This document shows positions 2,795 through 18,919 of a DNA stretch of 40,880 nucleotides, one piece after another. How positions within the stretch are numbered: position 1 is the first letter of the stretch; every line of letters starts with the position of its first letter. Source of the stretch: a virus. Its lineage: Duplodnaviria > Heunggongvirae > Uroviricota > Caudoviricetes. The position numbers were made by a program, and so were the translations under genes. The stretch lies in the IMG/VR virus record IMGVR_UViG_2563366819_000005; one strand, 5' to 3'. The notes beneath the pieces were generated by a model. That model was not told the origin of the DNA. It searched no databases and saw only the letters and a list, made by a program, of their open reading frames with translations.

Positions 2795-5387
2795 TTGCAT
2801 ATTCCTTAGCCCAGCGGGGCAGTGATAATGTCTTAATAGCTGGCCATTCATCGGTATTCAGGCAGTCAGACAGGGTTCGCAGATTGCGGTGATATTCCTG
2901 TTGACCTGCCAGTTTTGCTTCTTCGCCCATCATGAAAATTTCAACCGGATAACGTCCGCATTCAATAGTTGTGCTGGCAACCAGAAAAACGAAAGTTGGC
3001 TGCACTCCAAACTGTGCTTCATAACCGTCACTGTAGAATGCATCCTGAACGTGATAGCGGTAGTCGTAATAAGCGGTTTTGAATCGTTGAATATCCGCCG
3101 TAGTTTTCACGTCCATGATCCAGTGAAATTCAGGGATAATTTTGTCCGGACGGCACCGACACAAAATTCCTGTTTCAGGATCTTCCCAGTAAATTGATGA
3201 TTCAGCGTGTCCGGCGCTTTCAACAAGCCATTGCCCCAGCGGCAAAGCCATAACGCTTTGATACATGAGTTCAATTTTCCGGCCTTCTTCCGCAGTGATA
3301 ACCGTTTTTCCTGTGCTTGCGCATTCCATCAGAAACGCTTTCTCTTCTTCTTTTCCGGCGTTTGTACGGCGGTTAAATTCAGGTGCTACGATAAAGCGGT
3401 TACTGAATTCTTCCGGTTCAAGTACCCGGCAGTGGAAAGCGGTTCCTAAATCGAGCGTTTTTGTCTTTGTGGTGTCCACGGGGGCATTTTTACGCCACAA
3501 ATATAGTGCCGGAGTATCAGCAATGTCATCGAGCTGAGACTTACTGACACCGGGACCCGCGTGGTAATTCTCATTCGAAATTCCGTAATAAATACCTGGC
3601 TCTATGTCTTCTACGATTACGGGATCTGCGACTTCGCCAGTTTCATCACTGCAATCGCGATGCGGATCGCTGCCAGCATTCTCATTGTGCGGATGTTCAG
3701 CGCCTTCCATTTCCTCCGGATCATTTTCCTTAGCTTCAACCTGACTCTCTTCATCGAATGTTTCCTGGTATGTTGCGTCGCCCATCACCGCACCACAGTC
3801 AGGGCAGTTATCCCCGCCAGTCTGGCCGCAGGCATTGCAGGCTATTTCCGGTTCCTGTTGCACTACTGGCTCAGGTTGATTCATATCTGGTCTGGTTTTT
3901 TCCGTTTCTGGCTGGTTCTGGTACACACAATCGCGAGTCTGGATCCCCTTTACCCATTTCGGATCGTTCGGGTCGCTAATTCCGTCAACAAATTCACCAC
4001 GTGATGCAGCAAGCAATTTATCGGCATCGACAGGATTTTTTGATGGAATGTTTTTCCGGGCTTCATGGAGTTCTGCCCGCAGTTCCTGATATTTCGCATC
4101 AACAGAATTTACCTGTGACTGAGCATCCAGCGGCTGCGTGTCCTGATGATGTTCAGTTGCGTCCGGTTCCATTGTTTCAGCCTCTCCCTGTTCAACTGCC
4201 GTTGTTCCAGATGGTTGCGGTTTTTCTTCATCATCCTGTTTTCCTTCTTCTGTTACTCGCTGCGGCATCGGGGCAGAGGAGCGACCGCAGGCAATATCCA
4301 CGATTTCCGGATCAGGGTTGGCATGATCGGTTTCAGTCAGTACTTTGTTCAGATATTCAGTGACGTGCGCGGGGATGACCTCGATCCCAATTGGTGCTTC
4401 TTTTACGGACGCAACCACGATGGCGCGGGAATAATCCAGCCCGCCAGGCATGGTGATGAATTTGTCGCGGAAAACAGAAAAGGGCGGTTTATTTTCAGCG
4501 ATAATTTCCTCAATGCGTTTAGCGTGTGCCGGATGAAGGTTATAGATGTCCAGATCCATTGAACGGGCCAGTACGCCAGTGGCTACGTCGCGCGCCAGTG
4601 ACGTCAGATCGTGTACGAAACCTTCGCCGCGATCGGTGAGGTTTCCGCCGCCAGCATTAGCACCGGAAGCCGTGCGAGTGATGTGTGAAACACGATTACC
4701 CTTCATCCACTCTTTTGTCAGCAGTCCTCGATCGGTGTAGTCAGCGTTCAGGTATGCTTCGAAAAAAGCAGTTATCAGTCCCAGGTTTGAATGACCAGGA
4801 TTAGGGAAAACTTTGTCAGTGTCACGAACCAGTTTGTGGAGATCGCGAATTTCCAGCGGGTCGAGCAGGCTGGTTTTGTGGGAAACAGCCAGGGCAGTAA
4901 CAGCCGGTAGTTCTTCAGCCCGAGCAATGTGTAATGCCTGGAGTCCGTCGCGTGAAACGTGCGTTACCGGTTTTTCGCTGCCGTGTTGAGCAAGCCAACG
5001 AATGGGCAGTTCCTGGCCAGAAATTGGGAGTAGCATATTCTCCTCAATCTCAGTCATGTCTTCGCCGTTGACGTTGGTATTGCCTTGATAGTGAGCGTTG
5101 TCTGGTGCTGCTCCCGGTTTTAGTTCCCATGTCATGGAGTCTTTGCTGAGTTGATAGCGTTCACTCCAGGTAAAATCGATCTCACCTTCAGCGGGCAGGT
5201 CATTAACGACAGGAAAATTCGTGGCAACAGCTTTAAAATAGCTGCTCAGTTTTTTACCTGACTTAACGATCAGGTAGTCCAGAGTGGCACAGGTCGATTC
5301 AAAATCGTTGCTTGCCCACAGGACGACGTCAGGTTCACCGGATGATTTTTTCGCTTTCCGTAACAGGAAGAGTGGTTTTGTGCTCAT
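2787..5387 (-). CDS. recE: RecE exonuclease VIII (866 aa)
   Basis: 866-aa ORF beginning [32 protein letters not shown], with a C-terminal nuclease region. Length and synteny with recT match Rac RecE. Confidence 0.95.
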
Positions 5388-5837: not shown

Positions 5838-6008
5838 TTAAAGTTCATGTGCCATCTGGTCTTTTTCGGCACAAGCTTCACTGCAATATTTTCTCGGTTC
5901 GTCTTTTGATAAAATCCCGTGCATGAAGTGAAGCATTCTTTCAATAGCTTTGCTTTCTTCAACGTCTTTTTTGCAAAGGTGGTAAGCACATTTTATTTTC
6001 TTAGTCAT
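5838..6008 (-). CDS. ydaE: YdaE-like zinc-binding protein (56 aa; below the ORF-track length cutoff)
   Basis: Hand-translated from the minus strand: [56 protein letters not shown]. Its ATG overlaps the kilR stop (TGATG). Confidence 0.75.
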   Translation of the reverse strand: MTKKIKCAYHLCKKDVEESKAIERMLHFMHGILSKDEPRKYCSEACAEKDQMAHEL

Positions 6009-6229
6009 CACCATGACTCCGCCTTTACAGGTAAACCATCACGACCGAGGAAGACTTTAATCATGCGGTCAGTAATGCATGTTTTTGTGGTCAGGTTACG
6101 AATATATAGTTTTCGCTTTTTAATATTGTTTGCCGAGGCAATATATGTCCGGCCTTCATGAAGAACATAATCGCCAGGAGTCACACACTGACGTGGTATT
6201 TCATCAGTTCCGAAGTGATGTGCAATCAT
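6008..6229 (-). CDS. kilR: KilR cell-division (FtsZ) inhibitor, 73 aa
   Basis: [77 protein letters not shown] lies 8 nt upstream of the ATG. Confidence 0.85.
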
Positions 6230-6670
6230 AATTATCTCCATTTTTACAAATGAACTTTGTTGATGCGGTGCCTGGTGCCTCCAGGTGACTGCAACCAGTT
6301 AACAATTACAGTCGGCTTTCCCACCCAAACCAATAAGGACTAACATGACTTTTAACTGTGCCACGTGCGCTTAGCCGCATTCACCGCATCACAAAATTCA
6401 CTTTAAAAAGGGCGGACATCAGCCGAACTTCAAGAAAAAAACTGATGCCGCCAGGACTACACACAGCAATGTCGTTATTTACAACCGGAGGCGCACTCCC
6501 ACCATTTAAATTTAACAGACAAGACCGACTCTTTATGGATATCGGAAATGCGCCTTCGTGTTGTGCCCGGTTTTATTTCACCACCTCCGGGCTTCGGTGG
6601 TCTCGGCTATACCCCTACAGCGAGAGCTTGTGTTAACATTTCAATACCCTTACAGTTGAGAGTTATTGAT

Positions 6671-7159
6671 ATGTTGGATGTATTTACTCCATTGTTGAAA
6701 CTTTTTGCTAACGAGCCACTCGAAAGACTTATGTATACGATTATCATTTTTGGTCTCACTCTCTGGCTGATACCGAAAGAGTTTACTGCCGCATTCAATG
6801 CTTATACTGAAATACCTTGGCTCTTTCAGATTATCGTTTTTGCCTTTTCTTTCGTGGTCGCCATTTCCTTCTCAAGATTGCGAGCACATATTCAAAAGCA
6901 TTATTCATTACTACCAGAGCAACGAGTATTGCTTCGTTTATCTGAGAAAGAAATCGCTGTATTTAAAGATTTCCTTAAAACAGGAAATCTTATTATCACT
7001 TCTCCTTGCCGTAACCCGGTTATGAAAAAATTAGAACGGAAGGGCATCATTCAACATCAGAGTGATAGCGCAAACTGTTCTTATTATCTCGTCACCGAAA
7101 AATACTCCCATTTTATGAAGTTATTCTGGAACAGCAGGAGTAGACGTTTTAATCGTTAG
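6671..7159 (+). CDS. sieB: SieB superinfection exclusion protein (162 aa, membrane)
   Basis: MLDVFTPLLKLFANEPLERLMYTIIIFGLTLWLIPKEF... with hydrophobic segments. Start chosen at the internal ATG of the longer ORF. Confidence 0.8.
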   Translation: MLDVFTPLLKLFANEPLERLMYTIIIFGLTLWLIPKEFTAAFNAYTEIPWLFQIIVFAFSFVVAISFSRLRAHIQKHYSLLPEQRVLLRLSEKEIAVFKDFLKTGNLIITSPCRNPVMKKLERKGIIQHQSDSANCSYYLVTEKYSHFMKLFWNSRSRRFNR

Positions 7160-7311
7160 CTTACTGTGTGCTTCTCCAACCATCGGCGCGCACCAGTTTC
7201 GGTTTTAAATGTTTTGCTTTTGGTATACGTCATGGCAGTGAACGTTCCATCCTGGTTGGGGAACACGCCGCACACCAGGGATTCGTTGTTGCCGAGGTCG
7301 ATTTTTTGCAT
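7156..7311 (-). CDS. ydaF: YdaF-like small protein (51 aa)
   Basis: Hand-translated: MQKIDLGNNESLVCGVFPNQDGTFTAMTYTKSKTFKTETGARRWLEKHTVS. Convergent with sieB. Confidence 0.55.
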   Translation of the reverse strand: MQKIDLGNNESLVCGVFPNQDGTFTAMTYTKSKTFKTETGARRWLEKHTVS

Positions 7312-7321
7312 TTTGCGAATC

Positions 7322-7456
7322 TCACATCTTGTTGCTACGTATAGCGACTTCTGCCTGCCAGAGATCCCAGTCGTTGCTGCGTAAAGCCTGCACAGCCTGG
7401 TTGTAAGTGATACCGCAACAATCCATCAAATACTGAACTACTTCGTAATGCACCAT
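7322..7456 (-). CDS. ydaG: YdaG-like small protein (44 aa)
   Basis: Hand-translated: MVHYEVVQYLMDCCGITYNQAVQALRSNDWDLWQAEVAIRSNKM. Lies immediately upstream of ydaF on the same strand. Confidence 0.5.
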   Translation of the reverse strand: MVHYEVVQYLMDCCGITYNQAVQALRSNDWDLWQAEVAIRSNKM

Positions 7457-7625
7457 CTTATCTATCCCCTTAACGCCGGGTGGCGGAACTAACTGCTGCA
7501 CTGCAAAATTTGAATCCCGCCGTCATGTTCATACGCCTCGGGCTGGCTACTTAACCCCTGACCACTGCCTGGTAACTCGAAGTATTGCCCGGCGTTCTGT
7601 GGGGCGGGGTGGGTTGGTAGGTATA

Positions 7626-7670
7626 TAATGTACTTTGTGTTCATTATTGTAAAGTACTTTAAGTACATTT
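7626..7670. promoter_or_regulatory. OL-like operator cluster: GTAC-core sites (aatGTACttt, perfect palindrome AAAGTACTTT, aaGTACatt) over a candidate leftward promoter
   Basis: Three related sites within 45 bp at roughly 24-bp spacing. On the minus strand TTTACA and a TATATA/CATTAT -10-like element fall in the same stretch. Located just past the 3' end of the repressor gene, upstream of ydaG. Confidence 0.4.
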
Positions 7671-7743
7671 TATGTATAAAAAAATGAGACGGGATAAAGT
7701 GAAGCACAAACCCGGAGGGGGACGCTACCGGATTTATGCTGGT

Positions 7744-8163
7744 TTAAGAGGCTTTTTGTTTTTTCTTTCGTGCTAACTCTTCGTAAATTGCATTGTACTT
7801 CTGTTTTTTCTCCTCAAGAGTTTTTAAAAGTTCATCTGTCTCACTGTCAGGGAGCTCGTCCAGAAGGTCAATGATGATTTTTTGTCTTGGATTTAACTCC
7901 TGATAGAAACGTATCTGTCCACTTTCTTCTGTATCCTCTCCCAAAAGATAGGTTGGTGTTGTTCCAATGAGTGTTGCTAATTCCCTTAATTTCTCTCGGC
8001 GAGGAATTGTTTCACCATTAAACCATTTGCTAACCGCTTTTGGTGTTAATTTCATTCGACGGGCAATTTCTGCCTGCCTTCCATGTTGTTCATAACCAGC
8101 GTTTTCACAGGCTAGCGCAAGCCTACTGGCGAACTCTTTACGCGCTTTATCTTCATGAACCAT
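7744..8163 (-). CDS. racR: CI-type prophage repressor (XRE-family HTH), RacR-like
   Basis: HTH segment GRQAEIARRMKLTPKAVSKWFNGETIPRREKLRELATLIGTTPTYLLG. Divergent from a Cro-like gene and syntenic with Rac racR. Exact identity to K-12 RacR not verified. Confidence 0.65.
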   Translation of the reverse strand: MVHEDKARKEFASRLALACENAGYEQHGRQAEIARRMKLTPKAVSKWFNGETIPRREKLRELATLIGTTPTYLLGEDTEESGQIRFYQELNPRQKIIIDLLDELPDSETDELLKTLEEKKQKYNAIYEELARKKKQKAS

Positions 8164-8184
8164 AAGTTCAATGATATTCGCTCT

Positions 8185-8220
8185 TGAATGTACTGTCAGT
8201 TCTGTTATAGCATGTACTCA
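8185..8220. promoter_or_regulatory. OR-like operators between divergent repressor and ydaS: two aTGTACt sites 24 bp apart
   Basis: gaATGTACTgt (8186-8196) and gcATGTACTca (8210-8220) share the GTAC core with the sites at 7626-7670, in the 79-bp divergent intergenic region. Confidence 0.4.
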
Positions 8221-8242
8221 AAGTTCACATTGTGAGGGTGAT

Positions 8243-8497
8243 ATGAACCAGAAAACACTTGAAGATGTAATCAAAACTGTTCGCGTTTCTGTTGTGGCCG
8301 ACGTTTGTGGTGTCAGCCAAAGAGCAATCTACAAATGGATGGATAACGGAAAATTGCCTCGCACAGAATATACCGGCGAAACAAATTACGCTGAAAAAAT
8401 CGCTCATGCATCAAACGGATTATTTTCTGCCGATGCAATTTTAACTATTGGCAGAAATAAAACTACTACGAAAAAGCTGATGGGAGTTGATTCATGA
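8243..8497 (+). CDS. ydaS: YdaS-like Cro/CI-family DNA-binding protein (putative toxin or antitoxin)
   Basis: Divergent from the repressor and translationally coupled (ATGA) to ydaT. GAGGGTG SD before the ATG at 8243. The longest ORF starts at 8171. Confidence 0.65.
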   Translation: MNQKTLEDVIKTVRVSVVADVCGVSQRAIYKWMDNGKLPRTEYTGETNYAEKIAHASNGLFSADAILTIGRNKTTTKKLMGVDS

Positions 8498-8916
8498 AAA
8501 TCAAGCATGAGCACATCGAATCAGTGTTGTTAGCCCTGGCAGCCGAAAAAGGGCAGGCGTGGGTCGCTAACGCAATTACTGAAGAATATCTGCGCCAGGG
8601 GGGCGGCGAATTGCCCCTGGTACCAGGCAAGGACTGGAACAATCAGCAGAATATCTATCATCGTTGGTTGAAAGGTGAAACGAATGCGCAAAGGGAAAAA
8701 ATTCAGAAACTGATCCCTGCGGTTCTGGCAATTCTTCCTCGCGAGCTGCGTCACCGACTCTGCATCTTCGATACCCTGGAACGCCGTGCATTACTGGCGG
8801 CACAGGATGCACTGAGTACGGCAATTGATGCGCATGATGATGCAGTCCAGGCCGTTTACCGTAAAGCACATTTCAGCGGCGGCGGTTCTCCTAGCGATTC
8901 TGTCGTAGTGCATTGA
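8494..8916 (+). CDS. ydaT: YdaT-like protein (140 aa)
   Basis: MKIKHEHIESVLLALAAEKGQAWVANAITEEYLRQGGGELPLVPGKDW... 140 aa, as for Rac YdaT. Confidence 0.8.
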   Translation: MKIKHEHIESVLLALAAEKGQAWVANAITEEYLRQGGGELPLVPGKDWNNQQNIYHRWLKGETNAQREKIQKLIPAVLAILPRELRHRLCIFDTLERRALLAAQDALSTAIDAHDDAVQAVYRKAHFSGGGSPSDSVVVH

Positions 8917-8960
8917 TTGAAATTAATCGTACCGAACTGTTTTGTTCGGTATCAGTTAAA

Positions 8961-9380
8961 TGTAACGCTGCGAGCGTTACAAGGTGAAAACAAATGGCTT
9001 CAAACTGGATAAAGCTCGAAGTTATTACGCCGGATAAGCCGGAAATATTCAGGCTTGCTGAGATTCTGAATATTGATCCAGATGCCGCATTAGGGAAAGT
9101 CATTCGCTTCTGGGCATGGGCGGATCAACAAATGATAGACGGTAACGCAGAGTGTAACGCTCGCGGCGTTACAAAAAGTGCAATAGATCGCATCACTTTT
9201 ATGGCTGGTTTTGCTGATGCGTTAATTCAGGTTGGATGGCTGGTCGAAACTAATGGTGTGTTGTCGCTTCCTAACTTTGAGCGCCATAACGGGAAAAGCT
9301 CTAAAAAACGGGCGGTTACAAACGAGAGAGTAACAAAAATACGAGAACTGAAACGAAAAGGTAACGCTGCCAGCGTTACA
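8961..9380. repeat. Three copies of the palindrome GTAACGC-N5-GCGTTAC (8961-8981, 9153-9173, 9360-9380) plus degenerate half-sites; candidate replication-origin iterons
   Basis: Exact 7-bp inverted arms with a 5-bp spacer, three times within 420 bp: one just upstream of ydaU and two inside its coding sequence. Followed by a purine-rich direct repeat (gaggaagagaaa) encoding EEEKEEEKEED. Confidence 0.5.
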
Positions 9381-9794
9381 AAAACGGATCAAAAAGCGTT
9401 ACCAGAGGAAGAGAAAGAGGAAGAGAAAGAGGAAGATATAAATACTTATCTCCCCCTAAATCCCCCTCGCCAAAAACGAGCGTCTAAAAAATTCGAACCG
9501 GAGGCTATCGAGCTGCCTGACTGGTTGCCGGAAACACTCTGGCATGAGTGGGTTCAGTTCAGGCAGGCATTGCGAAAACCGATTCGAACGGAGCAGGGCG
9601 CTAACGGGGCGATACGGGAGCTGGAAAAATTCCGCCAGCAGGGTTTTTCACCTGAGCAGGTGATTCGACACAGCATCGCCAACGAATACCAGGGCTTGTT
9701 CGCGCCGAAAGGTGTTCGACCTGAGACGTTACTCCGACAGGTTAACACCGTCTCGTTACCGGATAGTGCGATCCCGCCAGGCTTCAGGGGGTAA
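8994..9794 (+). CDS. ydaU: YdaU-like replication initiator / replisome organiser
   Basis: Upstream of a DnaC-like gene. N-terminal region followed by an acidic EEEKEEEKEE linker. Contains the iteron-like palindromes, analogous to lambda O. Confidence 0.75.
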   Translation: MASNWIKLEVITPDKPEIFRLAEILNIDPDAALGKVIRFWAWADQQMIDGNAECNARGVTKSAIDRITFMAGFADALIQVGWLVETNGVLSLPNFERHNGKSSKKRAVTNERVTKIRELKRKGNAASVTKTDQKALPEEEKEEEKEEDINTYLPLNPPRQKRASKKFEPEAIELPDWLPETLWHEWVQFRQALRKPIRTEQGANGAIRELEKFRQQGFSPEQVIRHSIANEYQGLFAPKGVRPETLLRQVNTVSLPDSAIPPGFRG

Positions 9795-9800
9795 CTGACC

Positions 9801-10547
9801 ATGAAAAATATTGCGACAGGCGACGTTCTTGAACGTATCCGCAGACTGGCCCCGTCACATGTAACCGCGCCATTCAGGACGGTAGCGGAGTGGCGCGAGT
9901 GGCAACTTTCCGAAGGCCAGAAACGTTGTGAGGAGATCAACCGTCAGAATCGTCAGTTGCGGGTGGAAAAAATTCTGAATCGCTCTGGCATCCAGCCATT
10001 GCACCGCAAATGCTCGTTTTCGAATTACCAGGTGCAGAACGAAGGGCAGCGATACGCGTTGAGTCAGGCGAAATCCATCGCTGATGAACTGATGACCGGG
10101 TGTACAAATTTTGCGTTCAGCGGAAAACCTGGTACCGGGAAGAACCACTTAGCGGCAGCTATCGGGAATCGCCTGCTGAAAGACGGTCAGACAGTGATTG
10201 TGGTTACCGTGGCTGATGTTATGAGTGCCCTGCACGCCAGCTATGACGACGGGCAGTCAGGCGAAAAATTTTTGCGGGAACTGTGCGAAGTGGATCTGCT
10301 GGTTCTTGATGAAATTGGCATTCAGCGCGAGACGAAAAACGAGCAGGTGGTACTGCACCAGATTGTTGATCGCCGGACAGCGTCGATGCGCAGCGTGGGG
10401 ATGCTGACAAACCTGAACTATGAGGCCATGAAAACATTGCTTGGCGAGCGGATTATGGATCGCATGACCATGAACGGCGGGCGATGGGTGAATTTCAACT
10501 GGGAGAGCTGGCGTCCGAATGTCGTCCAGCCAGGAATTGCGAAGTAA
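9801..10547 (+). CDS. ydaV: DnaC-like helicase loader (AAA+ ATPase), YdaV-like, 248 aa
   Basis: Walker [16 protein letters not shown] and Walker B LLVLDEIG. Adjacent to the initiator gene. Confidence 0.9.
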
Positions 10548-10569
10548 TTTTTACCGGGAGAAAAATTTA

Positions 10570-11331
10570 ATGGAGACTGTTTTTGACGTACTGAAAGCAA
10601 TGGGAAAAGCCACATCCATAGAACTTGCTGCGCGACTTGATATCAGTCGTGAAGAAGTGCTGAACGAACTATGGGAACTGAAAAAGGCTGGTTTCGTTGA
10701 TAAAAGCGCGTACACCTGGCGTGTGGCTGATAACAACGTTCAGCAGGAACAGCCAGCGCCGGCAGAACTGCCGGAAGAAACTACCACGGCAACAGTCGCG
10801 AAAATTTCAGAGAGCGATTTAACTGCGACGATTGAACAACGTGGACCACAAACGGCGGATGAGCTGGCTACATTGTTTGGTACCACATCACGCAAAGTGG
10901 CTTCAACGCTGGCAATGGCAATCAGCAAAGGTCGTCTGCTTCGCGTAAATCAGGGCGGTAAATTTCGTTACTGCATACCGGGCGATAATTTACCAGCAGA
11001 GCCGAAAGCAGCATCGGTAGCGGAAACTGCTGGTAAGGCCTTTCCTCAGCCCGCAGGTGTTGCGTTACCAGTACAGGAGGCTGCAACACAGGAAGATATT
11101 AAAACAGAAACTGTGGCGGACATTGTGCAGTCGCTGCCATCGTTTACTGAAACGCGAGCGGATGACCTGGTTTTACCATCACTGCATATGGCAAACCGCG
11201 AACTGCGTCGGGCGAAAAATCATGTCCAGAAGTGGGAGCGTGTCTGCGCCGCGCTGCGGGAGCTGAACAAGCACAGGGATATTGTACGACAGATTACTGA
11301 TTCTTCCCGCCATGTTGCATCGGAAAAGTGA
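10570..11331 (+). CDS. YdaW-like phage protein with winged-helix-like segments (full length here)
   Basis: [45 protein letters not shown]... GGGAG SD upstream of the ATG at 10570. Confidence 0.55.
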
Positions 11332-11346
11332 TTGCCGGAGGCACCT

Positions 11347-11778
11347 ATGGCAAAAGTATTTACACCAGAAGAGCGGGAAAAAATTAAAGGGCAGGTTGTT
11401 GAACTTGTACGTCTGAGCGGTCGCGAGACGTTACGGGCTCTGGAGGCTAAAACCGGTGCATCAAGGTATTACATAAGCACTCTCGCCAGAGAACTGGTCG
11501 CCAGTGGTGATGTTTACAATTCAGGCTACGGATTATTCCCGTCTGAGCAGGCTCGTAAGGACTGGCAAAACGCCCGCAAAAAACTATCCAGGGCAAAGGT
11601 GAAAAAAACGGTTGTGGTTGATCCTGACCTTATCTGGTCATTACCAGACGGAGAAATACGCCGCTACGACAGGCGCCTGAATATAATCTGTCGCGAGTGC
11701 CGGAAAAGCGAAGTTATGCAGCGTGTACTGGCATTTTACCAGAGTAATTTCAGGAGGTTGTCTGGTGAGCACGATTAA
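11347..11778 (+). CDS. Hypothetical phage protein (143 aa)
   Basis: ORF with GGAGG SD 6 nt upstream of the ATG at 11347. No family recognised. Confidence 0.45.
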   Translation: MAKVFTPEEREKIKGQVVELVRLSGRETLRALEAKTGASRYYISTLARELVASGDVYNSGYGLFPSEQARKDWQNARKKLSRAKVKKTVVVDPDLIWSLPDGEIRRYDRRLNIICRECRKSEVMQRVLAFYQSNFRRLSGEHD

Positions 11779-11803
11779 CTACTAGGGGGGATAACAATAA
11801 AAT

Positions 11804-11823
11804 AAAGCCTCCTAGGAGGCTTT
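11804..11823. terminator. 20-bp perfect palindrome AAAGCCTCCTAGGAGGCTTT; candidate bidirectional terminator between convergent genes
   Basis: Perfect inverted repeat flanked by A/T-rich sequence. Contains the stop codon of the methyltransferase gene. Confidence 0.4.
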
Positions 11824-12852
11824 GATTATATTAAGCAAATGTTTTCCAATCGTTTCAGACATCTTCGGAGGGACCGCATTTCCTATTTGACGAGCCCGAG
11901 ATTGCAAAGAACCAATAAATTTATAATCCAAAGGAAATGTTTGTAGACACGCTGCTTCACGAACCGATATTGCTCGATTTTGTGTTGGATGTCCAAAACG
12001 TCCATTTGAATAGCTAATACAACGAGTTGTTAGTCCGCTGGCTGGTTTGTCCCAACTCAAACGTCCATATACGTCTGTATGCCCTTTATGGTTACGATGG
12101 CATTCTAAAATCAATTCATCTGGCCAAAATTCTCGACTTCCACCTTCAGGAGTGCATTTTATTCTACGTAAATTAAGCTCTGATAAGCGTGCAGCTTCAT
12201 GATCAGGAATACTATTATGCTTTTCTCCTGCTTCTATCTTCGGTAAATTAGCGATCCAGTCCTTTACTGTTGAATAGGGAGTATTTCCAACCCCATGTGT
12301 AGGAGAAGGCAATGCGACATAAAAATCCTTGGATGCAATGAGCACTAATCTTTCTCGCGTCTGTGGTACACCGTACCACGCAGCTGGCATTACTTTATAA
12401 TCTACACTATATCCCTTTGATGAAAGCATTTCTAAAAACATCATGAATGTTCCTTCATTTTTGTTAAACTTTTGCATTCCTGGCACGTTTTCAACAAAAA
12501 TAAAATCAGGCATATAATGCTCTACAAAGCGACTGAATTCCTTTAATAGATCTAATCGTGGATCATCATTTTTCTTATTTGAGTTTTGCTTAGAGTACGG
12601 TTGACAAGGCGCACATCCTGAAAAAAGAATGTAATCATTACGATGTTTTTTTACTAACTTGTTTATGGCATTGTTGTCGATTAACCTAATGTCCGAGTTA
12701 ATAAAAGCAGCCTGCGGGAAATTTGCACGAAATGAACTGGCTGCATCAACGTCGAAATCGAGGCCAAAAACAATATCCATTCCAGCTTGATGGAAACCTT
12801 GGCTGGTTCCACCACAACCGGAAAAGAAGTCAAACACTTTGATTTTTTTCAT
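11812..12852 (-). CDS. DNA (cytosine-5)-methyltransferase (346 aa from ATG at 12852)
   Basis: C5-MTase motifs in order: FDFFSGCGG (motif I), GCAPCQPYS (motif IV PCQ, catalytic Cys), FVENVPGM (motif VI ENV), QTRERLVLIA (motif VIII), GNAVPP (motif X). GAGGG SD before the ATG. Confidence 0.85.
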   Translation of the reverse strand: MKKIKVFDFFSGCGGTSQGFHQAGMDIVFGLDFDVDAASSFRANFPQAAFINSDIRLIDNNAINKLVKKHRNDYILFSGCAPCQPYSKQNSNKKNDDPRLDLLKEFSRFVEHYMPDFIFVENVPGMQKFNKNEGTFMMFLEMLSSKGYSVDYKVMPAAWYGVPQTRERLVLIASKDFYVALPSPTHGVGNTPYSTVKDWIANLPKIEAGEKHNSIPDHEAARLSELNLRRIKCTPEGGSREFWPDELILECHRNHKGHTDVYGRLSWDKPASGLTTRCISYSNGRFGHPTQNRAISVREAACLQTFPLDYKFIGSLQSRARQIGNAVPPKMSETIGKHLLNIIKAS

Positions 12853-12875
12853 TTTTCCCTCTGCATCCAGAATCA

Positions 12876-14705
12876 CTACCTAATGATACCACGGTCAAGA
12901 GCCTGAGTAATTATTTTTCTTATTTTTATAAATTCAGGCAATTCATTTTTAAGTCTTGCGGTCATCATTTGTTGGAGGCAAAAAATTTCCTCTGCATTTA
13001 CTTCTTCTTTATCATACAGGTGTTGCGCTAATAATCTTATTTGATTCTTATACAGTTCTGGATCATTAGAACTCCAGGTCTGTGAATCAATTATTTCTTT
13101 TTCACTTGGCGTAATTGCCTTTTCAATGAGTAATTGTTCGGGAGTATCAAATGGTAAATACTGCACTTTATTGAATGCATACTCAAGCACTTGCCTTTTG
13201 AGTCTATTAGATTCTTGTTCATTTTTTTTGCCATTACTACCACTGGCATTGATAATTAACTCGCAACCATAATATTTGCACATTGTATTAACTAAATCAG
13301 CATCAGCAATTTCACTAATTCTTACTGGTTTTATTTTTTTGTTTTTATCACCATCAAGTAAAAACAAAATATCATTGCGTTCTACCACAGCGTAACTGGG
13401 AAGATGCTTGCTTAAAATGGTCTCCGAACCACCTGGTATATAACTTACACTAAATGATAAGCTTAATCTTTCATCATTTTTAATCGCTTTATCTATAATT
13501 GCTTTAGCTAATTTATCTTCTACAATTATTGTTTTCTTGTTAATATCATGCCCTAGCTCTATAAAAGCTTCATCCGGTGCTATATTTTGAACTATTTTAG
13601 CTGTTTCACTCTCTTCATCAAAAACAAATAATTTAATGGCATCTTTGGGAAGAGTGTTCACAATAACAGGAGAATGGGTTGATATTACCACTTGATGTTT
13701 TTTCTGCTCAACAATAGAGTACAGAACATCCATCATCCTTTTTTGTGCACCAGGGTGAAGTGAAACTTCTGGTTCGTCAAGAAGAATTAATGAATTAGGT
13801 TTGGCCGAATAAATATTGAGTATTAGTGAAACTATTGCAAATTCACCACTTCCAGCAAACGCTTCTGTATAGTTCAACTTATCAGTTGAAAGTAAAGCGG
13901 TTCCTCCTCTGGTTCCAAATAACCGATGCTCAAGAAATTTAATGACTTTATATTTTTTCCCTAATATAAATGAGACGTGCTCAACTAGTTCTGGCGCCAA
14001 GGTTATATTTTTAACAATGGTTTCCGCCCCCCAGAGTCTTAAATTACTTAGCTTTTCATCAAAAGCTTTCTTTATATATTTAGATTTGCTTCTGATATAG
14101 TCTTGCTTTGTAATTAATACACCACTCTTCTTCTTTCTTAATTTAAAATCAGAGTGATACATACATCTATCAAATGCACTTATTTCCGATCTGAAATCTA
14201 GGAAAACCAATCCCTTCTTGATTTTTTTCCATCTGGTTGCATTACTATTAGCACCCAGATCATCCGAAATACTCTCCATGTTATCACCAACAGATGGTCG
14301 ACTTGTTTCCCAATAATCGATTGTTTTCTTGGTAGCATTGATACGTGCTTGGAGTATTTCAACTAAACGGCCATCAGCATTTTTATATCCATATATATAT
14401 CTAGGTTTAAGAGAACTGCCATCAGCAAGTTTTAGGTCAGGAAACTCATCTGTTTCAGTTGTGAACCAATAACGAGTTATATTTTTACCATGTGGGCAAC
14501 CAAATAGCGCTTTGATAACAGAACTTTTATTAGTTCCATTTTTTCCTACTAAAGCCGTTATAGGGAACTGAAAATCGATCCTTGCATTCTGCTCTATATT
14601 TTTAAAGTATGGAAAACGGATATGTTGTATGAATGGTTCAAATTCACCGTTTTTTAACGCGCACTGGAGTGTTCGAATTTTGCTCTTGTATGCGGAAGTG
14701 CTCAT
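12876..14705 (-). CDS. OLD-family-like protein: N-terminal ABC-type ATPase plus putative C-terminal TOPRIM nuclease domain (609 aa)
   Basis: P-loop ALVGKNGTNKSS (GxNGxxKS type as in RecF/OLD), Walker B SLILLDEPEVSLHP, H-loop ISTHSP. C-terminal IIVEDKLAKAII followed about 55 aa later by LFLLDGDKN, resembling the TOPRIM Glu and DxD motifs. Visibly AT-rich. Confidence 0.65.
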   Translation of the reverse strand: MSTSAYKSKIRTLQCALKNGEFEPFIQHIRFPYFKNIEQNARIDFQFPITALVGKNGTNKSSVIKALFGCPHGKNITRYWFTTETDEFPDLKLADGSSLKPRYIYGYKNADGRLVEILQARINATKKTIDYWETSRPSVGDNMESISDDLGANSNATRWKKIKKGLVFLDFRSEISAFDRCMYHSDFKLRKKKSGVLITKQDYIRSKSKYIKKAFDEKLSNLRLWGAETIVKNITLAPELVEHVSFILGKKYKVIKFLEHRLFGTRGGTALLSTDKLNYTEAFAGSGEFAIVSLILNIYSAKPNSLILLDEPEVSLHPGAQKRMMDVLYSIVEQKKHQVVISTHSPVIVNTLPKDAIKLFVFDEESETAKIVQNIAPDEAFIELGHDINKKTIIVEDKLAKAIIDKAIKNDERLSLSFSVSYIPGGSETILSKHLPSYAVVERNDILFLLDGDKNKKIKPVRISEIADADLVNTMCKYYGCELIINASGSNGKKNEQESNRLKRQVLEYAFNKVQYLPFDTPEQLLIEKAITPSEKEIIDSQTWSSNDPELYKNQIRLLAQHLYDKEEVNAEEIFCLQQMMTARLKNELPEFIKIRKIITQALDRGIIR

Positions 14706-14853
14706 TGTTTACTAAAGTCCATAATAGGCTATTAACAGGTTGAGGATGACATGATAACGATTTTTAATGCAGATAAAAGAGGTTTGTTGGTTAGCACACA
14801 ACAGAAAAAGTGACCTTACCGCTTGAACGAAAGGTAAGGGTAAGTAGGCTGTG

Positions 14854-15006
14854 ATGCAGCAAAAGACGATGTTAATCGCCCTGATTGTCATCTGTATTAC
14901 CGTCGTTGTGATGGCACTGGTAACAAGGAAAGACTTCTGCGAGGTACAAATCCGAACCGGTCAGACGGAGGTCGCTGTCTTCACAGCTTACGAACCTGAG
15001 GAGTGA
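14854..15006 (+). CDS. Hok/Gef-family type I toxin (HokD/RelF-like, 50 aa)
   Basis: Hand-translated MQQKTMLIALIVICITVVVMALVTRKDFCEVQIRTGQTEVAVFTAYEPEE, closely resembling HokD/RelF as I recall it. Single transmembrane helix plus conserved C-terminus. Confidence 0.75.
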   Translation: MQQKTMLIALIVICITVVVMALVTRKDFCEVQIRTGQTEVAVFTAYEPEE

Positions 15007-15013
15007 GAGACCA

Positions 15014-15035
15014 GGCGAGGGAGAAATCCCTCGCC
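15014..15035 (+). other. Stem-loop GGCGAGGGA-GAAA-TCCCTCGCC just 3' of the hok-like ORF (hok mRNA 3' structure)
   Basis: Perfect 9-bp stem with a GNRA tetraloop 8 nt after the stop codon. No U-tract follows. Confidence 0.4.
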
Positions 15036-15471
15036 ACCTCTGATGAGTCAGGCATCCTCAACGCACCCGCACTTAACCAACTTTGGCGGGTATATTTTAT
15101 CTGTGAATATTTTTATAAAAATAATGCCCACGCACAGCATAAAACAAAAAGTATTATAGATAAAAAAGGAACGTAATGTGCAGATTTGTTGTTTTCCATA
15201 TTTACTCACCTTAATATGATTAACCCTAATAGGGTTGTTATTTCAGCGGTTTTCAAATGAGATATTATGGTGATCTGGCAGATTTGCATAACATTAAAAT
15301 TTAATTTGTTTAACCGCTTTTAATAATAAGCGTTGTTTGTATCCCAGCAATCTGTTGTTTGGTTTTTATTCCATTAAGGTGGGGCTTTACACTGGAGCCA
15401 GTTTATTTATACTTCATACGTCAGCCTGAACAACTGGCATCTGCTGCGCTGCGCCATCGAGAGATTAAGAA

Positions 15472-16071
15472 ATGGCGCATATACAACTGGTCAAACAAAC
15501 CTCTTCCGGATTACTTCTCCCGGCGACGCCGGAGAGTTGTGATTTTCTGCATCAAATCAAAATAGGCGAGTGGATACACGCAGACTTTAAGCGTGTGCGT
15601 AACAACGCATTCCACAAGCGTTTTTTCAAACTCCTGCAACTGGGATTCGATTACTGGACTCCGGTCGGTGGGGCGATCACGCCTCGCGAACGAGAACTGC
15701 TGTCTGGTTTCGTTGATTACCTGTGCGAATCAGTTGGTCGGGAACACACGCCAGCCCTGAGTGATGCCGCAGAGCAATATCTGAATACAGTTGCGACACG
15801 CAGAACCCGGGATACGGCATTGCTAAAGTCGTTTGAGGCTTTTCGCGAGTGGGTAACCATTCAGGCCGGATTTTACACCGAGCATATTTATCCGGACGGT
15901 AGCCGTGGGCGTCGGGCAAAATCCATCGCTTTTGCGAATATGGACGAAGTCGAGTTTCAGCAGGTTTATAAATCTGTACTGAATGTGCTGTGGAACTGGA
16001 TTCTGTTCCGTAAATTCTCCTCTCAGGAGGAAGTTGAAAATGTGGCCGCACAACTACTGGAGTTTGCGTAA
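15472..16071 (+). CDS. Nin-region-like phage protein (DUF1367-like), 199 aa
   Basis: Position and coupling (TAATG overlap with the next gene) typical of lambdoid nin-region genes. Family assignment from memory only. Confidence 0.5.
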   Translation: MAHIQLVKQTSSGLLLPATPESCDFLHQIKIGEWIHADFKRVRNNAFHKRFFKLLQLGFDYWTPVGGAITPRERELLSGFVDYLCESVGREHTPALSDAAEQYLNTVATRRTRDTALLKSFEAFREWVTIQAGFYTEHIYPDGSRGRRAKSIAFANMDEVEFQQVYKSVLNVLWNWILFRKFSSQEEVENVAAQLLEFA

Positions 16072-16361
16072 TGGTGAATTTACGTAAAGCGGCTAAAGGC
16101 CAGATGTGCCAGATCAGAATCCCTGGCTACTGCAATCACAATCCCGAAACCTCTGTGCTGGCGCATTACAGGCTGGCGGGGACGTGCGGAACAGCGACAA
16201 AACCACACGATATGCAGGCGGCGATAGCCTGTAGCTCATGCCACGATCTAATCGACGGGCGGGTAAAAACCAGCGATTACACCAAAGAAGAATTGCGCCT
16301 GATGCATGCTGAAGGGGTTTTTCGCACACAAGAAATCTGGAGAAAGAAAGGTCATTTATGA
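16071..16361 (+). CDS. YbcO-like (DUF1364) putative metal-binding nuclease, 96 aa
   Basis: MVNLRKAAKGQMCQIRIPGYCNHNPETSVLAHYRLAG...ACSSCHD: Cys/His-rich, same length and pattern as DLP12 YbcO. Confidence 0.6.
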   Translation: MVNLRKAAKGQMCQIRIPGYCNHNPETSVLAHYRLAGTCGTATKPHDMQAAIACSSCHDLIDGRVKTSDYTKEELRLMHAEGVFRTQEIWRKKGHL

Positions 16362-16900
16362 TTTACCCAACGAATACAGGAAAAAGCGGAGAACACCTTC
16401 GCCTCACCACGCTGGAAAGTGTCTGGATTCAGGGAAAACTACGTATGTGGGGGCGCTGGTCGTATATTGGCGGTGGCAGGTCAGGGAATATGTTCAATCA
16501 GTTGTTGGCATCCAAAAAACTGACGAAAACAGCCATTAATGAAGCCCTGCGCAGAATGAAAAAAGCGGGAATAGAGAAAGCTGAGCTGGAAGCGTTTTTG
16601 CGAGAGATGATCAACGGCAAGCAAAAGAGCTGGCTGGCGCATTGTACTGATGCAGAGGCGTTATGTATTGATCGAGTCATAAGTGAGGTGCTGGCAGAGC
16701 ATCCAGGATTGATTTGCATTCTCCGGCAACGCTATGAAGGGCGGGGGATGACTAAGCGCAAAATGGCTGAATTGCTAAATGATGCACACCCAGAGTGGTG
16801 TTTTAGCACATGCGAAAAACGGATTGCTAATTGGTTAGCTGTTGCTGAGTATGCCCTATATATTCCCATGCGTGAATCATTTGCTGAGAAAATGGCTTGA
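16358..16900 (+). CDS. Q-like late-gene antiterminator (180 aa)
   Basis: Last gene of the nin-like operon (ATGA-coupled), immediately upstream of a strong terminator and the lysis region. WGRW segment resembles small Q-family proteins. Confidence 0.55.
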   Translation: MIYPTNTGKSGEHLRLTTLESVWIQGKLRMWGRWSYIGGGRSGNMFNQLLASKKLTKTAINEALRRMKKAGIEKAELEAFLREMINGKQKSWLAHCTDAEALCIDRVISEVLAEHPGLICILRQRYEGRGMTKRKMAELLNDAHPEWCFSTCEKRIANWLAVAEYALYIPMRESFAEKMA

Positions 16901-17944: not shown

Positions 17945-18373
17945 ATGGGTTTTCGTAGCGCATCAATTCTTACGTTGATTATTAGTGGGATTATTATCGG
18001 GTGCACTGATGCTGTATCGACAAATTATCATGACCGTACATCATATTACTCCGATAAAGCAATAGAGACACAGTATGTGAGTTCATCTGAACGTACTTCT
18101 GATGTTAGGGAGGATATCCGTCTGTATGCCCATCAAATCAAGAGCGCCATCGAAAAACAGTTCGGGGATGCGAGTAAGTATTCAGGAAAAGAGTGTACAC
18201 TGAGAATGCATATGGCCCCGAATGGCCTTCTACTGGAGGTTAAAAGAGAAAGTGGAGACCTCGATTTATGTCGTGAAGCGATGAATGCGATAAAGAATGC
18301 TGATATACCTGCCCCCCCTTCGCCGGAAGTATATAAAGTATTTCAAAATGGGGTGCTGGATTTTAAACCCTGA
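17945..18373 (+). CDS. Putative lipoprotein moron 1 (142 aa)
   Basis: Signal peptide with lipobox (IIIGC). C-terminal domain is paralogous to the next gene. AT-rich. Confidence 0.6.
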   Translation: MGFRSASILTLIISGIIIGCTDAVSTNYHDRTSYYSDKAIETQYVSSSERTSDVREDIRLYAHQIKSAIEKQFGDASKYSGKECTLRMHMAPNGLLLEVKRESGDLDLCREAMNAIKNADIPAPPSPEVYKVFQNGVLDFKP

Positions 18374-18523
18374 TATTTATTGTTTTGTAATAAACGGTTT
18401 CGGCTTAGGTTTGTTCTGACACAGCTACGGCACTGAGCTAAATTTAGCGGATAGTCAGCTCTGAGCCAGTGGCGGACGTAACAACTACTATTGCTGAGAT
18501 TTTAATGGATTGAGGAGCAAGAA

Positions 18524-18919
18524 GTGGGATTAAAGAAAATCGTTATGTTGACTTTTTGGGTCGGTTTTGTTGCGGGATGCACACCTTTACACCCTTCAGA
18601 TTGCCACAAAACTACTGCTACAGGTAGTTGCAGTTCAGGACGCTGGGATGATCAGGATGAATGGGGGGCGCAAGCGCGGGGAATCAGAGCTGCAATTAAT
18701 GCCAAACTTGATGAGCCGCATAACTGGAAAGGGAAAAAATGCAGGTTGCATATGGAATTCTCTCAGGATGGCACGGCGTTAAAAATATCTACCAGTAACG
18801 GTGATAAAGCCTATTGCGAAGCGATAAAGTCCGCAGCTCATAAAGCCAAATTTCCGGCCTTCAACAATCCGGAAGTCTACAGAGATTTTCAGAAATCTGG
18901 CTTTGACATGCGAGGTTAG
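18524..18919 (+). CDS. Putative lipoprotein moron 2 (131 aa), paralogue of 17945-18373
   Basis: Lipobox FVAGC. C-terminus KKCRLHMEFSQDG...NNPEVYRDFQKSGFDM aligns with ECTLRMHMAPNG...PSPEVYKVFQNGVLDF of the upstream gene. Confidence 0.6.
   Translation: MGLKKIVMLTFWVGFVAGCTPLHPSDCHKTTATGSCSSGRWDDQDEWGAQARGIRAAINAKLDEPHNWKGKKCRLHMEFSQDGTALKISTSNGDKAYCEAIKSAAHKAKFPAFNNPEVYRDFQKSGFDMRG

Follow-up and report, generated by a model that had tools for sequence, protein, structure and literature searches.

Where, in an AT-rich block that interrupts the backbone of a Rac-type prophage, does the foreign DNA begin and end, how did it arrive, and what are its genes for? The question is raised by positions 11780 to 15470 of IMG/VR record IMGVR_UViG_2563366819_000005, a 40,880-nucleotide stretch of Caudoviricetes DNA that is called the window here. 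An earlier note, made from the letters alone, described this interval as holding ATPase, methyltransferase, and hok-like genes that run against the flanking phage operons, with a 20-bp perfect palindrome as its left boundary and about 450 bp of AT-rich noncoding DNA as its right one, and suggested a defense or accessory hotspot. We propose that the block is a moron-type, self-contained two-gene cassette, lying inverted in a hotspot where Rac- and Qin-type lambdoid prophages exchange cargo, and that its genes, which code for a C5 cytosine DNA methyltransferase (methylase) and an OLD-like ABC ATPase fused to a TOPRIM nuclease domain, form a defense pair. We put the probability of this reading at roughly 70%.

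The edges of the cassette are fixed by two sets of alignments. First, related prophages were aligned with the window by blastn, a check that the earlier note had suggested. Backbone similarity is lost at or shortly past the DUF977 stop codon, at 11781-11787 for the closest backbones (loci L090 and L007) and at 11743-11778 for others, and it resumes at 14825-14830, or at 14842 in loci bearing relBE; other cargo lies between. Second, two Citrobacter loci (L094 and L095), which carry the cassette next to an integrase at one end of a prophage, match the window across exactly 11804-14789, including the palindrome and the 84 nt that precede the ATPase start (Table 1). The foreign DNA ends at 11804, so the palindrome does bound it on the left. 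On the right, the proposed boundary was misplaced, as the real edge is at 14789/14790, 84 nt upstream of the ATPase start. Windowed GC content bears out the AT-rich character of the block, with values of 0.31 to 0.42 throughout 11800-14800 compared with 0.49 to 0.55 on the left and about 0.50 on the right; by segment, the GC content is 0.359 in the cassette, 0.505 in the left backbone, and 0.491 in the right backbone. Both cassette genes are on the minus strand and do run against the plus-strand operons around them.

The cassette is present in 32 of 5,426 complete Escherichia coli genomes, that of the laboratory strain ATCC 8739 among them, and all copies are at least 99.3% identical; the flanking backbone of the 32 carriers is 95.5 to 99.9% identical. 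Far from being shared by all related prophages, these genes are therefore a rarity at this position. Both joints between cassette and backbone occur at an identity of at least 95% in 32/32 carriers and in no other genome, which argues for a single acquisition. A search of GenBank phage records with the cassette returned only its hok and spacer flank, and the ATPase and methylase genes are in no sequenced phage of that collection. The two-gene unit also occurs at unrelated positions in Citrobacter (L093, L094, and L095) and Salmonella (L096).

This distribution bears on the possibility that the cassette is ancestral Rac backbone that was lost in most lineages, its low GC content being merely typical of phages. 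The AT-rich spacer at 15092-15471 does demonstrate that DNA of low GC content can be conserved backbone, and because no empty site was found, polarity is unreadable from an unoccupied slot. However, ancestry is hard to reconcile with a cassette that only 0.6% of the genomes carry, near-identical and with identical joints in backbones of 95.5 to 99.9% identity, that occupies unrelated positions in two other genera, and that cut short, on its arrival, the hok leader kept in full by seven related loci. We regard this explanation as very improbable.

The palindrome at the left edge, which reads AAAGCCTCCTAGGAGGCTTT at 11804-11823, scores as a terminator-like hairpin on both strands. In the minus-strand RNA, an 8-bp hairpin is followed by the U-tract UUUAUUUUAUU (-13.8 kcal/mol; z score, -3.5). 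When the window was block shuffled 300 times, a perfect palindrome with arms of at least 10 bp arose on 18 occasions, so that length alone is only weakly significant; we judge the palindrome to be real because of its position in the methylase stop codon, its minus-strand U-tract, and its exact conservation in the Citrobacter copy, which matches it letter for letter and is 82% identical elsewhere. In Salmonella locus L096, a different hairpin stands at its place, which indicates a conserved function rather than a recombination site. The palindrome is the cassette's own intrinsic terminator, and with this terminator and a composition unlike that of its neighbors, the cassette is moron-like. At its other end, the 84-nt 5' region that accompanies it into Citrobacter presumably holds the promoter and the ribosome-binding site of the ATPase-methylase operon.

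Could the palindrome instead be a recombination site used by a dedicated mobile element, such as an insertion sequence (IS) or transposon, an integron-like cassette, or a site-specific integration system? That the foreign DNA ends exactly at the palindrome's outer edge, and that IS insertions lie nearby in relatives, would suit such an origin. It is opposed by the absence from the cassette of any transposase, integrase, or recombinase gene, of convincing flanking direct or terminal inverted repeats indicating transposition, and of a second palindrome copy at the cassette's other end. Moreover, other cargo in the slot has ragged junctions, and the palindrome overlaps the methylase stop codon, resembles a terminator, and is exchanged for another hairpin in the Salmonella copy. 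We therefore give a dedicated element very little credence and retain the moron-type reading of the cassette.

Two observations concern the palindrome in other contexts. On the plus strand, which corresponds to the rightward phage early transcript, folding predictions pair the palindrome's CCUCC arm with a G-run at 11784-11790 in place of the terminator hairpin. The palindrome may thus be a weaker block to rightward phage transcription, with read-through of the cassette terminator. Also, in one Citrobacter genome (L093), the cassette lies by an IS1 fragment, an HD-domain gene, and a chromosomal dcm-vsr pair, and the palindrome is cut after its first arm.

The slot itself is polymorphic, and at least ten distinct cargo sets were found in it. 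Rac backbones of 96 to 98.6% identity hold IetA-IetS, in which case hok is deleted; a pair of hypothetical genes; a Q-like gene with a hypothetical gene and a gene for a nucleoid-associated protein; an Sll1717-type P-loop ATPase, in which case DUF977 is deleted and hok has lost its 5' end; KilA-N with a hypothetical gene; or relBE-ydfV-flxA. Qin-type relatives carry QueH, SIR2, a 763-amino-acid PDC-S06-like ATPase, or SMEK with a methylase, and the same slot is found in the isolated phages vB_EcoS-683R6 (with IetAS) and mEp460. Throughout, the flanks of the slot are kept at 90 to 98.6% identity in relatives, with DUF1627 and DUF977 on the left and hok, the spacer, DUF1367, DUF1364, and DUF1133 on the right. 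The hotspot suggested in the earlier note is thereby upheld as an accessory one. For defense, PADLOC recognized IetA (9e-143), IetS (9e-302), PDC-S06 (7e-72), and a BstA-like (KilA-N) protein (3e-21) among the cargo, and it gave weak matches for SIR2.

How cargo enters the slot is suggested by its edges. The junctions of other cargo are ragged, with left edges that range over 11285-11787 and right edges over 14825-15075, and DUF977 or hok is sometimes deleted, which points to illegitimate recombination that creates each new joint. A synthetic query representing an empty junction of DUF977 with the hok leader matched none of the 5,426 genomes, and the smallest filling is about 0.5 kb of small open reading frames (ORFs); the slot thus appears to be replaced rather than filled and emptied. 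For the window cassette, we propose a single entry into an ancestral Rac-type prophage via illegitimate recombination, which would account for the 16-nt filler at the left joint and for the loss of hok's mok/sok leader at the right one. Later spread among E. coli, whether through homologous recombination between conserved flanks or through phage transfer, would fit the distribution described above.

A divergent version of the pair is present near hok and DUF977 in other E. coli prophages (L128, positions 5992-12044, and L125), where the ATPase is 39% and the methylase 60% identical to the window copies. It was considered as cargo of the same slot and rejected; in L128, it lies beyond hok, behind about 2 kb of small ORFs, and thus in another slot of a related phage region.

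Hotspots of this general kind have precedents. P2-like phages and P4-like satellites have antiviral-system hotspots (Rousset et al. 2022, PMC9122126). The slot resembles these hotspots, and lambdoid morons, in its fixed position between conserved phage genes, in the swapping of gene content among near-identical elements, and in cargo that is AT rich, appears to have its own transcription signals, includes known defense systems (here IetAS), and would be expressed in the lysogen. Unlike the P2 and P4 hotspots, it is found in Rac- and Qin-type lambdoid prophages, between DUF977 and hok or DUF1367, and it has ragged junctions that sometimes eat into the flanking genes, a type I toxin locus as one flank, and some cargo that is not recognizably defensive. 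A literature search found no description of a slot between DUF977 and hok. The kind of feature is therefore known, as prophage morons and defense hotspots, and both this slot and a methylase-linked OLD-like nuclease appear to be undescribed in the literature searched. The slot directly abuts hokD. Much of its cargo, however, is unrecognized or only candidate defense and would escape the test used in a preprint (10.1101/2025.08.07.668861).

One filling of the slot is familiar from the K-12 strain. The relBE-hokD (relBEF) locus of the Qin prophage is the same slot with other contents, and relBE abuts hokD there at the equivalent of window position 14842. The hokD gene of K-12 Qin has lost its canonical mok/sok leader, as has the window hok. 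The two loci differ in that the K-12 cargo is a type II toxin-antitoxin pair co-oriented with hokD, whereas the window cargo is an inverted methylase-nuclease pair, and in that the left anchor of the slot is undetectable by blastn in K-12 Qin. Repeated replacement of cargo would explain why hokD-type genes are often found without mok/sok.

What the cassette encodes is evident in part from profile matches. The methylase matches TIGR00675 (dcm) with 166 bits against a cutoff of 100.65 and PADLOC MTase_II at 1.4e-96, and its ORF can be extended to a GTG at 12876. Compared by sequence with solved structures, it best matches the catalytic domains of eukaryotic DNMT1 (E about 1e-38), with the bacterial enzymes M.HaeIII (1e-20) and M.HhaI (1e-14) far behind.

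The ATPase protein is matched best by PADLOC profiles HEC-04 (1.7e-34, over residues 232-459 only, against profile positions 160-383 of 494) and ATPase-Toprim_I-B (2.8e-26), and the NCBIfam model restrict_AAA_1 scores 35.7 bits, below its cutoff of 300. Pfam called no TOPRIM domain in the protein at an E value of 0.01 or better. In 22 homologs, the least similar at 38% identity, the Walker A residues G54 and N56-S62 (column 55 varies), the Walker B pair D310/E311, and the H-loop residue H344 are invariant, as are the TOPRIM residues E396/D397 and D451-G-D453. An AlphaFold model of the protein has a pLDDT of 81, and its best full-length fold matches in the PDB are GajA and Thermus OLD 6P74, with E values of about 1e-12.

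The methylase and the nuclease travel together well beyond E. coli. Their linkage was sampled with one genome per species, in 80 loci retrieved with peptide patterns drawn from the ATPase only. A C5 methylase gene is adjacent on the same strand in 60 loci, lies within 6 kb in 15 more, and is missing from 5. Three of these five stop at a contig edge, which leaves a methylase within 6 kb in 75/77 informative genomes, across phyla. In IMG/VR, a methylase is present in 61/61 informative loci, about 13 of which are copies of the window cassette. The two genes are separated by 23 nt in the window. Median identity to the window copies is 55% for the methylase and 37% for the nuclease, so that the methylase is the better conserved of the two, and the two identities correlate (rho, 0.39; P = 7e-4). 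This pattern resembles that of a restriction-modification module and suggests, from sequence comparison, a restriction-modification-like system.

The linkage also decides how seriously to take an alternative in which the two genes are functionally independent cargo, with an anti-restriction or orphan methylase, shielding the phage genome against restriction enzymes of the host, next to a stand-alone OLD- or HEC-04-type protein of abortive infection or exclusion. Independence has some appeal, as P2 Old and HEC-04 function as single genes, no recognized restriction-enzyme family is among the 25 best PADLOC matches of the ATPase, and orphan C5 methylases encoded by phages are common. However, the linkage is far too tight for unrelated passengers, in that 60/80 loci have the genes adjacent on the same strand, 75/77 genomes and 61/61 viral loci have them within 6 kb, and the gap in the window is 23 nt. 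Also, the two-gene unit is intact across its E. coli, Citrobacter, and Salmonella contexts. We consider independent cargo to be unlikely and favor a functional pair.

In some genomes, other genes come between the two. In several genomes of Bacteroidota, Patescibacteria, and other groups (L066, L077, L078, L080, L083, and L031), a gene for a GHKL-type ATPase of 540 to 680 amino acids separates the methylase gene from that for the ATPase-TOPRIM protein; its product has a GHKL/MORC-like N terminus with the motif ...LAELIANSYDA.... In L085 and L086, two larger genes are found there. These arrangements suggest that three- or four-gene versions of the methylase-nuclease system exist.

The nuclease has relatives in several described defense systems. 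Like members of the OLD family (P2 Old, Thermus OLD 6P74, and GajA of Gabija) and HEC-04, the window ATPase combines an N-terminal ABC ATPase with a C-terminal TOPRIM domain whose Glu and DxD metal ligands are conserved. The partner gene sets it apart, as this ATPase is paired with a C5 methylase, whereas Class 1 OLD proteins have no partner, Class 2 proteins (Gabija) have a UvrD-like helicase, Class 3 proteins are associated with a retron, and PARIS has a separate AriB. The window nuclease fits none of the described OLD classes. A 2023 review of these classes mentions no methylase-linked class, and a literature search found no such class, no TOPRIM restriction enzyme, and no paper on the window pair. 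Two candidate precedents were rejected: the OLD gene in the PluTI paper belongs to a Gabija-like helicase pair, and the MORC paper concerns a different ATPase. The HEC-04 ATPase-TOPRIM fusion provides anti-phage defense for which both active sites are needed (preprint 10.1101/2024.01.29.577857).

Type II restriction-modification systems with a C5 methylase offer a second comparison. Like them, the cassette has adjacent, presumably cotranscribed methylase and nuclease genes that are mobile as one unit, and its methylase is more conserved than its nuclease. Type II nucleases have PD-(D/E)XK, HNH, GIY-YIG, PLD, or half-pipe folds, while the cassette nuclease is an ATP-binding TOPRIM protein of 609 amino acids.

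We posit how the cassette would work. Its own terminator and its own 5' region would permit expression from a repressed prophage. The C5 methylase and the OLD-like ABC-ATPase/TOPRIM nuclease most likely act as a restriction-modification-like defense, in which the DNA of host and prophage would be marked by the methylase, and incoming DNA without the mark would be attacked by the ATP-dependent TOPRIM nuclease.

Several points weigh against this interpretation. TOPRIM is, to our knowledge, no established restriction-enzyme fold, and known OLD- and HEC-04-type proteins are sensors or abortive-infection effectors rather than methylation-sensitive nucleases, so that the cassette methylase could have another role. 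No restriction endonuclease model is among the best 25 of the 140 PADLOC families matched by the ATPase, and the database names for both proteins are generic, with nothing curated beyond "ATP-dependent nuclease." Defense or restriction by the pair is a prediction from sequence. A simple promoter scan of 14706-14789 gave no site above threshold. Regarding the slot, the cargo types were sampled from a few dozen records, and PADLOC recognizes neither QueH nor five of the hypothetical proteins among them. Because part of the cargo is not recognizably defensive, the term "defense hotspot" is only partly borne out, and "accessory hotspot" is safe.

A broader proposal is more tentative, and we rate it as possible rather than probable: that the pair represents an undescribed and widespread class of restriction-modification system, often phage borne, with the TOPRIM nuclease as its ATP-dependent restriction component, and that the slot between DUF977 and hokD is a general discovery site for E. 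coli defense genes. If this were true, a methylase-linked class would be added to the OLD nuclease family, with a fold so far unused by known restriction enzymes. The pair, conserved across phyla, is a candidate restriction system with an unusual nuclease. Moreover, the slot is a precise and easily searchable cargo site in a prophage family that is among the commonest of E. coli, with homologs of its flanks in about 4,800 of the 5,426 complete genomes, and the hypothetical genes within it are candidates for new antiviral functions, as has been the case with the P2 and P4 hotspots.

Table 1. Features of the cassette, its joints, and the adjoining prophage backbone, in window coordinates
Feature	Position	Strand	Evidence or remark
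DUF977 gene (YdaW/LygF-like)	11332..11778	+	Pfam DUF977, E 5e-27
Left joint, 16 nt, GGGATAACAATAAAAT	11788..11803	.	In neither related backbones nor the Citrobacter cassette copy
Mobile cassette (2,986 bp): terminator, C5 methylase, ATPase-TOPRIM nuclease, 5' region	11804..14789	-	82.1% nucleotide identity to Citrobacter loci L094/L095
Palindrome, 20 bp, intrinsic terminator of the cassette operon	11804..11823	-	Inner half codes for the methylase end, K-A-S-stop
C5 cytosine DNA methyltransferase, 346 aa, RefSeq WP_000721512	11812..12852	-	Pfam DNA_methylase, E 5e-61, full length
OLD-like ABC ATPase fused to TOPRIM nuclease domain, 609 aa	12876..14705	-	Pfam AAA_21/AAA_15/SMC_N
Cassette 5' region, 84 nt	14706..14789	-	Travels with the cassette into the Citrobacter context
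Right joint, 61-nt hok leader remnant	14790..14850	+	Cassette end 14789/14790 by Citrobacter comparison
hok (HokD-type) toxin ORF, 51 aa, RefSeq WP_032158962	14851..15006	+	Pfam HOK_GEF, 1e-21
hok 3' untranslated region with terminal hairpin, end of conserved hok module	15007..15091	+	Aligns with hokD loci to 15091
AT-rich noncoding spacer upstream of the nin-like operon, GC 0.334	15092..15471	.	Backbone in relatives
DUF1367 gene, first of the nin-like/Q module (right backbone)	15472..16071	+	Pfam DUF1367, 4.8e-97

The DNA to the right of the cassette has a different history. The hok-like ORF had been counted as part of the counter-transcribed block, but it reads in the same direction as the phage operons and stands on the backbone side of the joint. 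Positions 14828-15091 are about 90% identical to the hokD loci of Qin- and Rac-type prophages, and from 14830/14842 to 16900, there is a contiguous match of 96.6 to 97.2% in L090 and L008. The spacer at 15092-15471 is 96.6 to 97.8% identical in five loci (L008, L089, L090, L091, and L092), all of which hold other cargo. By these alignments, hok and the AT-rich spacer are conserved backbone rather than cassette, and the low GC content of the spacer is no sign of foreign origin. The earlier note was right that AT-rich noncoding DNA is present here, as evidenced by the GC content of the spacer and by the absence of any RefSeq-annotated coding sequence from the 465 bp between hok and DUF1367 (15007-15471), but wrong to take this DNA for a boundary.

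The arrival of the cassette cost hok its leader. The canonical hok leader carries the mok start and the sok gene. A conserved leader of about 190 nt precedes hok in seven related loci (L002, L003, L004, L006, L007, L090, and L091), while blastn found no match to it in L001, a 100% identical copy of the window; hokD in K-12 Qin lacks this leader as well. Intact in relatives and absent here, the leader indicates that the insertion cut into the hok locus. Otherwise, the window hok shares with canonical hok loci the Hok ORF, the 3' region, and a lambdoid position between the replication and Q modules. The remnant at 14790-14850 contains a hairpin (CCTTACC/GGTAAGG) over Shine-Dalgarno-like purines (-18.8 kcal/mol; z score, -2.1). 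An Rfam scan of 11000-16500 detected no sok/hok or other RNA family and gave one chance match to a CRISPR repeat (E 0.41). The leaderless hok of the window is probably silent, as K-12 hokD is generally said to be. In L008 (strain EA13), an orphan canonical hok leader, 95% identical, is found at 1269-1459, about 4.5 kb from a leaderless relBE-hokD and beside IS elements.

The spacer has features of its own. It contains three plus-strand terminator-like hairpins (15221-15237, 15315-15332, and 15383-15399), one promoter-like site, and a 16-bp AT palindrome at 15108-15123. Relatives use the spacer as a further, minor site of insertion, as evidenced by IS421 in L091 (7799-8911) and a DUF1971 gene in L007 (5060-5401). 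An unannotated minus-strand ORF for a hydrophobic protein of 53 amino acids, at 15048-15209, is convergent with hok just past the hok 3' end. The Qin-type relative L002 has an annotated small minus-strand ORF at the equivalent place (5157-5336). The window ORF may be a chance product of AT-rich DNA.

The wider setting is that of a well-known prophage family. Positions 10500-16900 match E. coli PapM-32-1 (L001) at 100% identity, and the annotated record identifies the window as a full-length Rac-type lambdoid prophage adjoining ttcA. The gene order runs from intR, xisR, ralR, recET, kilR, sieB, repressor/cro-like genes, and ydaT through a YdaU-like initiator gene, ydaV, DUF1627, and DUF977 to the AT-rich block; DUF977, with its stop codon at 11776-11778, is the last replication-side backbone gene and the left anchor of the variable slot. 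Right of the block come DUF1367, DUF1364 (YbcO), and a DUF1133 Q-like protein, followed by lysis and structural genes. This order agrees with the earlier placement of the block between the replication and nin-like modules of a Rac-like prophage. A gene for a TolA C-terminal-domain protein and a partial tolA-like pseudogene lie at about 18100-18900 (25614-26420 in L001), after the Q-like gene and before the lysis cassette.

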